Part shown: positions 508 through 873 of the stretch, piece after piece | Numbering within the stretch: position 1 is the first letter of the stretch | Layout: each line of letters begins with the position of its first letter | Origin: a virus | Lineage: Duplodnaviria; Heunggongvirae; Uroviricota; Caudoviricetes | DNA length: 5,948 bases | Direction: 5' to 3' (one strand) | Virus record (IMG/VR): IMGVR_UViG_2529292869_000005 | Location: 1 to 5,948 of that record | Translations under genes and position numbers: made by a program | Notes under the pieces: generated by a model | The model's input: the letters and a program-made list of their open reading frames with translations, nothing else | What the model was told of the DNA's origin: nothing | Database searches by the model: none

Positions 508-508
508 T

Positions 509-549
509 AAAAAAAGCCAGCGACTGACCTGAAAAAGAAGACGCTGGCT
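509..549 (-). terminator. Hairpin (stem GCCAGCG 516-522 / CGCTGGC 542-548, 19-nt loop) that on the minus strand is followed by a 7-nt U-tract; candidate minus-strand intrinsic terminator or structured RNA element
   Basis: 7-bp G/C-rich inverted repeat; A7 run at 509-515 becomes U7 on the minus strand. The loop is long for a canonical terminator. Confidence 0.35.
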
Positions 550-655
550 AAAAGGCCTTATATGTTTGTAGAGACTTATTTTTCACAGACAGCAATGATG
601 CCTGTCAATATATTATCAATATGCGGATTGTTTCAGTTACAGATGCTTTATTAAG

Positions 656-700
656 GAAAAAAACAGCCAGCACTGACTTTCGGTGGAGAGGTGCTGGCTC
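656..700 (-). terminator. Paralogous hairpin (stem AGCCAGCAC 665-673 / GTGCTGGCT 691-699, 17-nt loop) with a minus-strand U-tract; second copy of the element at 509-549
   Basis: 9-bp inverted repeat. Relative to copy 1 the stem carries a compensatory pair change (G522-C542 becomes A672-T692), preserving pairing. A7 at 656-662 gives U7 on the minus strand. Confidence 0.35.
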
Positions 701-873
701 AAAAGGATAGATGTACTTCACATGTTGCTTCTATATGGCAGTACATTTTCTGACAGACAGTGACGGATGTTGTCAAGATATTGTGTCATTTATAACCTGA
801 ATCGGGGGAGGCCGGAATGTTATCTGGCATTTTTAGCAGAGCCTGAATGCCATAATCACGGCTCCCGGCGTTG

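Follow-up and report, generated by a model that had tools for sequence, protein, structure and literature searches.

An apparent diverged tandem paralogue of the pasA small RNA gene in the late region of a lambdoid prophage

PasA and the two units of the locus

PasA is an Hfq-dependent small RNA (sRNA) of enteropathogenic Escherichia coli (EPEC) E2348/69, encoded on the minus strand of NC_011601 (Pearl Mizrahi et al. 2021, PMC8550237, Table S6), and its stability has been published as Hfq-dependent in EPEC. The gene lies between E2348C_0688 and E2348C_0689 in the orientation > < > (PMC8550237). According to Table S6 of that study, the transcript has a single 5′ end, at 743499, and two 3′ ends, of which the one at 743415 (85 nt) is the major and the one at 743264 (236 nt) the minor. 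Ligation and sequencing of interacting RNAs (RIL-seq) assigned 41 partners to PasA, including both esterase mRNAs, and most of the partners were core-genome mRNAs (PMC8550237). In phage NC_011356, pasA is flanked by the genes for the sialic acid esterase and the holin, according to a 2026 preprint (Zhu, Shabalina & Storz, 10.64898/2026.05.13.724894). Here, we analysed a stretch of 5,948 nt from a virus of the class Caudoviricetes (IMG/VR record IMGVR_UViG_2529292869_000005, positions 1 to 5,948; this whole stretch is referred to as the window). It is very probable, as one account together with the rest of the explanation given below, that positions 506–808 of the window are the pasA locus of a Stx1/434-type lambdoid prophage (Stx, Shiga toxin) and hold two head-to-tail copies of one sRNA gene unit. 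Unit 2 is PasA, and unit 1 appears to be a full-length but diverged paralogue (506–608). Both units lie between the genes for the sialate esterase and the holin, are read on the minus strand, and converge with the Q-dependent late operon.

The positions of the window were mapped onto the EPEC chromosome (window x = NC_011601 x + 742758). The window was 99% identical to E2348/69 over 440–1000, with no difference over 657–741 (NC_011601 743415–743499), and phage NC_011356 was 99.6% identical to the window. The published Northern probe for PasA, GCCAGCACTGACTTTCGGTGGAGAG (PMC8550237), corresponds to window 666–690. Because of this locus identity and the probe match, PasA is assigned to 741 to 657 on the minus strand, with the second hairpin as its terminator. 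Three features by which PasA is recognised were found at this place: the identity including the probe site, the position between the esterase and holin genes and antisense to both, and a 3′ stem–loop followed by poly-U. On the basis of Table S6 and the sequence identity, the 85-nt major form occupies 657–741 of the minus strand, and the 236-nt minor form, produced by read-through of terminator 2 and termination at terminator 1, occupies 506–741 (Table S6 and folding). The PasA terminator (665–699, minus strand) consists of a 9-bp stem, AGCCAGCAC/GUGCUGGCU, followed by G and U7 (from 664–657), and a minus-strand terminator is annotated at this place in phage 434. The published PasA seed, GCCAGCACCU (text of Fig. 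S5, PMC8550237), is the complement of 689–698, which forms the 5′ arm and loop edge of this terminator. Among the published targets is E2348C_0688_743175_743305_+, with the site CUGAUGCUGGA (Table S7, PMC8550237), and the target-motif site that RIL-seq gave for PasA in the esterase mRNA, CTGATGCTGGA, is located at 475–485 on the plus strand, inside the esterase 3′ end. RIL-seq also recorded a plus-strand RNA, "pasA.E2348C_0689.IGR" (743494–743512; window 736–754), which forms chimeras with PasB and lies opposite the PasA 5′ end and promoter.

A first-pass annotation, made from the letters of the window, had described two diverged tandem copies, each of about 150 bp, of a hairpin-bearing element in this region. 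All of the blocks that it listed were found in their places. The copies extend over 506–656 (copy 1, in unit 1) and 657–808 (copy 2, in unit 2), and their hairpins start exactly 150 bp apart. Read as letters of the plus strand, they share A-runs (509–515 and 657–663), an inverted repeat (AGCCAGCG at 515–522 and CGCTGGCT at 542–549 in copy 1; AGCCAGCAC at 665–673 and GTGCTGGCT at 691–699 in copy 2), AAAAGG (550–555 and 701–706), a ACAGACAG block (585–592 and 753–760), and TGTCAA (603–608 and 771–776). The global alignment of the two units, at full length on the minus strand, gave z = 9.1 (0 of 2000 dinucleotide shuffles), and the alignment of the units minus the hairpins (promoter and body) gave z = 2.9, a score reached by 24 of 2000 shuffles. 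Copy 1 is shorter by about 15–17 nt, which are missing between the ACAGACAG block and the hairpin. The duplication was seen by global alignment with softer gap costs, and strict local alignment caught the first 20 nt only; Tandem Repeats Finder did not report the duplication because the copies are too diverged.

On the minus strand, each of the shared blocks can be read as part of an sRNA gene. The A-tract becomes the 3′ poly-U tail, and the terminator stem, in which the PasA seed also lies, comes from GCCAGC/GCTGGC. AAAAGG becomes CCUUUU before the stem, TGTCAA becomes a perfect TTGACA −35 element, and the ACAGACAG block supplies the TGT upstream of the −10 element. In an alignment of six alleles, the −35 element, TGT, ATAAGTnTC, CCUUUU, the stem, and the tail were common to all. 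The CCUUUU of unit 1 (550–555, minus strand) lies directly 5′ of its terminator, and that of unit 2 (701–706, minus strand) lies 5′ of the PasA terminator; both are putative U-rich Hfq sites. A U-rich stretch before the stem was kept in all unit types, with the allele substitutions CCUUUU, CGUUUU, and CCUUCU, and is presumably the U-rich part of an Hfq-binding module. The repeated unit therefore seems, from its sequence, to be a whole gene with promoter, body, Hfq module, and terminator, beyond a hairpin alone. The hairpins of the first-pass annotation are real, but the gene unit around them and its existing name, PasA, had been missed.

Promoter-like blocks, terminators, and stem covariation

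Each unit contains a promoter-like block on the minus strand. The predicted block of PasA (747–776) consists of TTGACA from 776 to 771, an 18-nt spacer, TGT from 755 to 753, and CAGAAA from 752 to 747. The block of unit 1 (579–608), predicted by alignment with that of PasA, consists of TTGACA from 608 to 603, an 18-nt spacer, TGT from 587 to 585, and GAAAAA from 584 to 579. The geometry of the −35 element, the 18-nt spacer, TGT, and the −10 element is thus the same in both units. The published 5′ end of PasA (741) is located 6 nt downstream of the CAGAAA hexamer, and the published 5′ end of PasC falls on the base homologous to the PasA 5′ end. In the global alignment of the stretch from TTGACA to CTGTCTGT, the spacers of the two units matched at 2 of 10 positions and the flanking blocks at 11 of 12 and 8 of 8. 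A diverged spacer between matching flanks is the pattern expected of a conserved promoter, and TTGACA with a TGn-extended −10 element would form a promoter in each unit. Published accounts of the PasA ends differ, with a cleaved 5′ end in the 2026 preprint and one 5′ end with two 3′ ends in Table S6 of PMC8550237. A consensus promoter scan called a minus-strand site from 636 to 607 (CTGAAA-18-TATATT), for which no further support was found.

The terminators of the two units have a similar structure. That of unit 1 (515–549, minus strand) has an 8-bp stem, AGCCAGCG/CGCUGGCU, followed by a U-run (from 509–514) and then AUU, and a minus-strand terminator is annotated at its place in phage 434. 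On the minus strand, hairpin 1 folded with −16.5 kcal/mol (z −2.95) and hairpin 2 with −16.3 kcal/mol (z −3.74), and none of 200 dinucleotide shuffles was as stable. The sequence 3′ of each hairpin is U7 on the minus strand, as had been pointed out in the first-pass annotation, and AAAAGG on the plus strand. A G+C-rich stem directly before a U-run, the mark of an intrinsic terminator, was found for both hairpins on the minus strand and for neither on the plus strand, indicating that both are intrinsic terminators for the minus strand and not for the plus strand. The earlier suggestion that the hairpins are intrinsic terminators or the 3′ ends of small antisense RNAs agrees with the published PasA ends, which fall at 657 and 506 on identical sequence; the latter (743264), at which the 236-nt form ends, lies in the tail of hairpin 1. 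No open reading frame (ORF) of 60 or more amino acids had been noted in 508–808, and the longest ORFs overlapping this region were indeed of 30, 38, and 56 amino acids. We do not regard these as coding candidates: the 38-amino-acid ORF (605–721, minus strand) runs through the PasA terminator, and those of 30 and 56 amino acids are on the plus strand.

The terminator stems fall into four allele classes, copy 1, PasA, PasC, and a class that we call variant D. Their stems, in the sense of the RNA, are AGCCAGCG/CGCUGGCU (copy 1), AGCCAGCAC/GUGCUGGCU (PasA), AGCCAGCGUCC/GGGCGCUGGCU (PasC), and AGCCAGUAC/GUACUGGCU (variant D). A coordinated change from G-C to A-T between the copies, previously taken as a sign of selection on structure, was located at G522-C542 of copy 1 and A672-T692 of copy 2. 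An adjacent 1-nt indel makes the homology of this column slightly ambiguous from the two copies alone, and the other natural alleles settled it. In an alignment of nine alleles, 97.5% of the stem cells were paired, and two-sided changes were found at three of the nine pairs (C-G/U-A, G-C/A-U, and C-G/U-A), with variant D contributing a C-G to U-A change. The covariation score was reached by 0 of 500 shuffles, and when the partner was slid by 1–3 columns, pairing decreased to 18–48%. Furthermore, U.G and U-A alternate at the ninth pair among the PasC alleles, and the plasmid-borne copy 1 has a U.G pair; on the plus strand, these U.G pairs are C.A mismatches. Because only the minus strand can form these U.G pairs, the structure appears to be conserved on that strand. 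These comparisons lend moderate support to stem covariation and to selection on structure.

Unit 1: second gene or terminator

The findings above can be combined into the following account. TTGACA, the 18-nt spacer, and the TGn-extended −10 element of unit 2 would start transcription near 741, and the transcript would end at the 665–699 hairpin and U7 to give the 85-nt sRNA, which Hfq would hold via the 3′ poly-U and the CCUUUU before the stem. A published proposal is that PasA pairs, through the seed GCCAGCACCU in the 5′ arm and loop edge of its terminator, with mRNAs bearing CUGNUGCUGG-like sites; the esterase mRNA itself has one such site. Some of the transcription would read through and stop 150 nt further on, at the 515–549 hairpin and its U-run, giving the 236-nt form. 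Whether unit 1 fires or not, its terminator would act as a terminal stop that bars antisense transcription from the esterase gene and the region upstream; in the near-identical Stx1a phages, stx1 is located upstream of the esterase gene.

Unit 1 shows homology to the PasA/PasC family along the whole unit, including the promoter blocks, the U-rich stretch, the stem, and the tail. Around the ancestral start site it lacks about 15 nt, and its single-stranded 5′ region, in which CUCUACAAACAUAUAAGGCC corresponds to window 554–573, is a different one. Its predicted transcript of about 68 nt (506–573, minus strand) would have an open 24-nt 5′ region, the terminator, and the U-tail, the 3′ end being a published one and the 5′ end being placed by homology with PasA. 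The RIL-seq chimeras named "pasA.E2348C_0688.IGR" map to 743267–743294 on the minus strand (window 509–536), where the RNA was RNA2 in 100% of cases and had a U-tract of seven. Hfq UV cross-linking and analysis of cDNA (CRAC) gave the peak EcOnc52 on the minus strand of enterohaemorrhagic E. coli (EHEC) Sakai (1181998–1182075), flagged as having a Rho-independent terminator (Tree et al. 2014, PMC4104026), and this peak maps to window ~495–574, over unit 1. These published tables, obtained with other strains, indicate that the 3′ end of unit 1 is real and bound by Hfq. The chimera fragments of unit 1 and PasA numbered 119 and 4983 in one growth condition and 54 and 116 in another, so that their ratio changed from 0.024 to 0.47; this condition dependence hints at separate control of unit 1. 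There is about an even chance that unit 1 fires independently and produces an Hfq-binding sRNA of about 68 nt.

Several points weigh against this account. It depends throughout on sequence identity to strains studied by others, and the physiological role of PasA is still unknown in the literature. The −10 hexamers match the consensus at only three of six positions, and the consensus promoter scan of the window called neither of the TTGACA-based sites because these hexamers are weak. The mature 5′ end of PasA is described as being made by cleavage of a longer transcript (10.64898/2026.05.13.724894), and if so, the TTGACA block need not be a promoter. The covariation support is only moderate because four independent allele classes contribute to it. 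With regard to unit 1, the published view of its signal is a 3′-extended isoform of PasA (PMC8550237), its RIL-seq counts are small (the 119 and 54 fragments), and what favours its independent firing amounts to hints. EcOnc52 in prophage Sp4 of Sakai, where IS629 has removed unit 2, was considered as proof of independent transcription and rejected; as the 78-nt region is part of a 420-nt block that Sp12, a prophage with both units, shares without a difference, the CRAC reads cannot be ascribed to Sp4.

The strongest alternative, to which we give nearly an even chance, is that unit 1 is a dead duplicate of which the hairpin alone works, as a back-up terminator or barrier, so that the locus holds one sRNA gene with two 3′ ends. 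The single 5′ end and two 3′ ends of PasA in Table S6 (PMC8550237) fit this reading, as do the RIL-seq reads of the unit 1 region, which occur only at the 3′ hairpin, the loss of about 15 nt around the ancestral start together with the weak −10 element, and the EcOnc52 peak that cannot be assigned to the PasA-less copy in Sp4. In addition, among the IMG/VR loci, unit 1 was never found without unit 2, save where an insertion sequence (IS) had cut unit 2 away. On the other hand, unit 1 has kept TTGACA, the 18-nt spacing, and TGT despite divergence at 8 of 10 spacer positions, and its promoter block is intact (at most one edit) in 48 of the 49 IMG/VR loci with copy 1. The U-rich Hfq stretch, which a mere terminator does not need, has also been kept; the chimera ratio of unit 1 to PasA shifts 20-fold with the condition; and the body of unit 1 is nearly invariant among loci, whereas the bodies of PasA and PasA-2 differ at many positions. 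A reading in which unit 1 is a separately transcribed and functionally distinct sRNA of about 68 nt goes further. The locus would then be a tandem pair of the OmrA/B kind, produced by local duplication, the single-unit loci of PasC and variant D would have arisen by loss or exchange between the repeated hairpins, and there would perhaps also be a cis action on the esterase–holin junction of the late transcript. We consider this extended reading possible rather than probable.

A main role in cis is improbable. In that case, PasA and the unit 1 RNA, as antisense RNAs to the esterase–holin late transcript, would control its processing or stability and, through it, the timing of lysis and the release of toxin after induction. 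Over 506–741, the two RNAs show full complementarity to the late-operon strand, RIL-seq chimeras join PasA to the 3′ ends of the two esterase mRNAs, and convergent sRNA genes occupy the "moron" position in many lambdoid prophages (Tree et al., PMC4104026). However, the late operon is silent in lysogens, yet PasA is abundant there and has its 41, mostly core-genome, partners, and the mapped contact with the esterase mRNA is a short trans-type seed match (475–485) outside the antisense overlap. A cis-antisense effect on the late transcript and a link between PasA and lysis are both speculative. A plus-strand role of the hairpins, in which they would serve as stem–loops for the stabilisation or processing of the late mRNA downstream of the esterase gene, is very unlikely; it was raised in the first-pass annotation, and no specific support for it emerged: although they fold there with −15.5 and −20.8 kcal/mol (z −3.45 and −4.03) and hairpin 1 starts 8 nt past the esterase stop codon, such folding is unspecific because any perfect inverted repeat folds on both strands, the U.G pairs of natural variants become C.A mismatches, the U-tracts (T-runs), mapped RNAs, and Hfq binding are all on the minus strand, and some esterase–holin spacers lack both units.

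Gene context, distribution, and relation to known systems

The window is the late region of a lambdoid prophage. Upstream of the locus, an ORF on the late-operon (plus) strand at 34–507, with a TAA stop at 505–507, is the 3′ end of a sialate O-acetylesterase gene (nanS-p/yjhS, SASA family), and this region is 99–100% identical to places annotated as SASA family carbohydrate esterase or yjhS in Stx1a phages, YYZ-2008, and phage 434. The spacer between the esterase and holin genes is 446 bp long. The class II holin S gene (954–1160, plus strand), identified from its ORF and the annotation of relatives, is the first gene of the lysis cassette and is followed by genes for a signal-anchor-release (SAR) endolysin and Rz/Rz1 and, further on, by HNH endonuclease and terminase genes. 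Over 400–960, the window was 99.6% identical to phage YYZ-2008 and 21 Stx1a-converting phages, 99.1% identical to phage 434, and 96% identical to H-19B; in the Stx1a phages, YYZ-2008, 434, and H-19B, the flanks of the pasA spacer are annotated as yjhS or SASA family esterase and as holin. In the curated record of phage 434 (OL657226), both hairpins are marked as minus-strand terminators, and a terminator on the plus strand is marked just before the holin gene. The latter corresponds to a plus-strand terminator-like hairpin with a T-run at 873–909, outside the repeat and just upstream of the holin gene. Together with a second hairpin and T-run of this kind at 811–828, it is kept in the PasA, PasC, and variant D loci, and spacers without Pas units (L052 and L092) have a different plus-strand terminator in the same place. 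These plus-strand hairpins may shield the lysis genes from non-Q-modified transcription.

The large terminase gene (4462–5948) is split over three frames, with frame changes near 4620 and near 5105–5135, which suggests a defective prophage or sequencing errors. An AT-rich stretch (2130–2580) between Rz and a 104-amino-acid ORF (2588–2902) contains T-rich tandem repeats (2457–2533) with periods of 21–25, and a 74-amino-acid minus-strand ORF (2984–3208) is located downstream of the 104-amino-acid ORF.

To compare loci, we gathered 80 IMG/VR loci via the esterase C-terminus, of which 75 extended far enough past the stop codon to be informative. Both units were present in 47 of these. In 17, a lone PasC-type unit followed the stop codon directly; 5 had variant D as their only unit, 3 had an unrelated spacer, and 3 were cut by IS elements. 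The PasC locus of E2348/69 is also a single-unit locus, with a copy 1-type stem and a PasA-like body and promoter. Among 5426 complete E. coli genomes, unit 1 was found in 677 and unit 2 in 691, with a median of 3–4 places each. Sequence searches suggest that the Pas family is confined to Escherichia: in a GTDB scan with one genome per species, the esterase tail was found only in Escherichia albertii and one Escherichia sp. Blastn at "distant" sensitivity against phages, aimed at more distant relatives, returned nothing below ~93% identity. In E. coli, the matches of lowest identity turned out to be PasA-2 or copies truncated by IS elements.

IS3-family and other IS elements were found in or beside the Pas hairpins in loci L008, L017, L074, and L090 and in Sakai Sp4 (L086, from 1131), where IS629 lies 22 bp upstream of the −35 element of unit 1. 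Such insertions may explain the terminator-less "PasA-3" variant of the 2026 preprint. Several E. coli plasmids of 82–93 kb carry a decayed esterase 3′ end and a 90.8%-identical unit 1 beside IS600; in one of them (L089, 1400–1660; NZ_CP027339.1, 92 kb), unit 1 has an intact promoter block and a U.G pair in its stem. The spacers that lack Pas units (L052, L057, L078, L092, and L093) have a minus-strand hairpin, GTGAG...CTCAC followed by TTTTT, right after the esterase stop codon, which could be the end of another small antisense RNA.

Compared with the described RNAs, unit 2 is PasA itself, with the same sequence (657–741), flanks, strand, terminator, and seed as in EPEC E2348/69. Unit 1 resembles PasC in being located directly after the esterase stop codon and in having PasC's CG-type stem, AGCCAGCG/CGCUGGCU. 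With its ~15-nt deletion and different 5′ region, however, it is none of the named Pas RNAs, and the literature treats it as the tail of the "minor" form of PasA. In EHEC Sakai, EcOnc51 (Sp12; PMC4104026, Table S2) covers the hairpin of unit 2, as the PasA-2 allele, and EcOnc52 (Sp4) covers unit 1. Like the two units here, both are antisense to late genes, and both are flagged as having Rho-independent terminators, but they are CRAC peaks that, unlike PasA, have been neither mapped as transcripts nor probed on Northern blots. Both have been given as PasA homologues (PMC8550237); on the present alignment, EcOnc52 instead appears to be the tandem paralogue and not PasA. EcOnc15 (Sp15) and EcOnc04 (Sp11) were rejected as members of the locus, as they map upstream of stx1A and upstream of the esterase gene. 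According to the preprint (10.64898/2026.05.13.724894), at least 22 kb separate any pasA copies, and none of the copies are tandem duplicates; here, a diverged copy lies 150 bp from pasA. Unit 1 is too diverged for the BLAST criterion of that study.

PasA is among the most connected accessory-genome sRNAs of EPEC and adjoins the lysis genes in Stx1-type phages, and because of this connectivity and the proximity to lysis genes and stx1, a correct annotation of the locus matters for work on regulation in EHEC and EPEC. In RefSeq records, nothing is annotated over unit 2, and only the end of the esterase gene is annotated over unit 1. A cmscan of the whole window against Rfam 15 (E ≤ 10) matched no family over 500–950 and gave two unrelated weak matches elsewhere. 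Automated pipelines therefore miss the locus. The presence of a diverged unit at 150 bp changes how the "minor isoform" of PasA, its EHEC homologues, and the evolution of the family are read, the last of these involving tandem duplication as well as repeated phage acquisition.

Two other groups of sRNAs invite comparison. AgvB and AsxR (RF02702 and RF02703) are also short Hfq-binding RNAs of lambdoid prophages, encoded in the moron region and convergent with the late operon, and they have a variable single-stranded 5′ end and a conserved terminator, but they are located downstream of Q or stx, whereas the Pas units are located between the esterase and holin genes. The absence of an Rfam 15 match at E ≤ 10 ruled out membership in AgvB, AsxR, or STnc100. 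OmrA/OmrB of E. coli and PrrF1/PrrF2 of Pseudomonas are head-to-tail sRNA paralogues with conserved terminator ends and diverged 5′ parts, and in PrrF, a read-through transcript spans both units. The pasA pair has a similar tandem arrangement; it differs in being on a prophage and antisense to an operon, and the expression of its second unit on its own is putative. The element is thus already known, as PasA/PasC (2021, 2026) and as EcOnc51/52 (2014), and involves no new kind of mechanism; the tandem relationship of unit 1 and pasA is undescribed in the literature and is the small new point that this locus adds to these systems.

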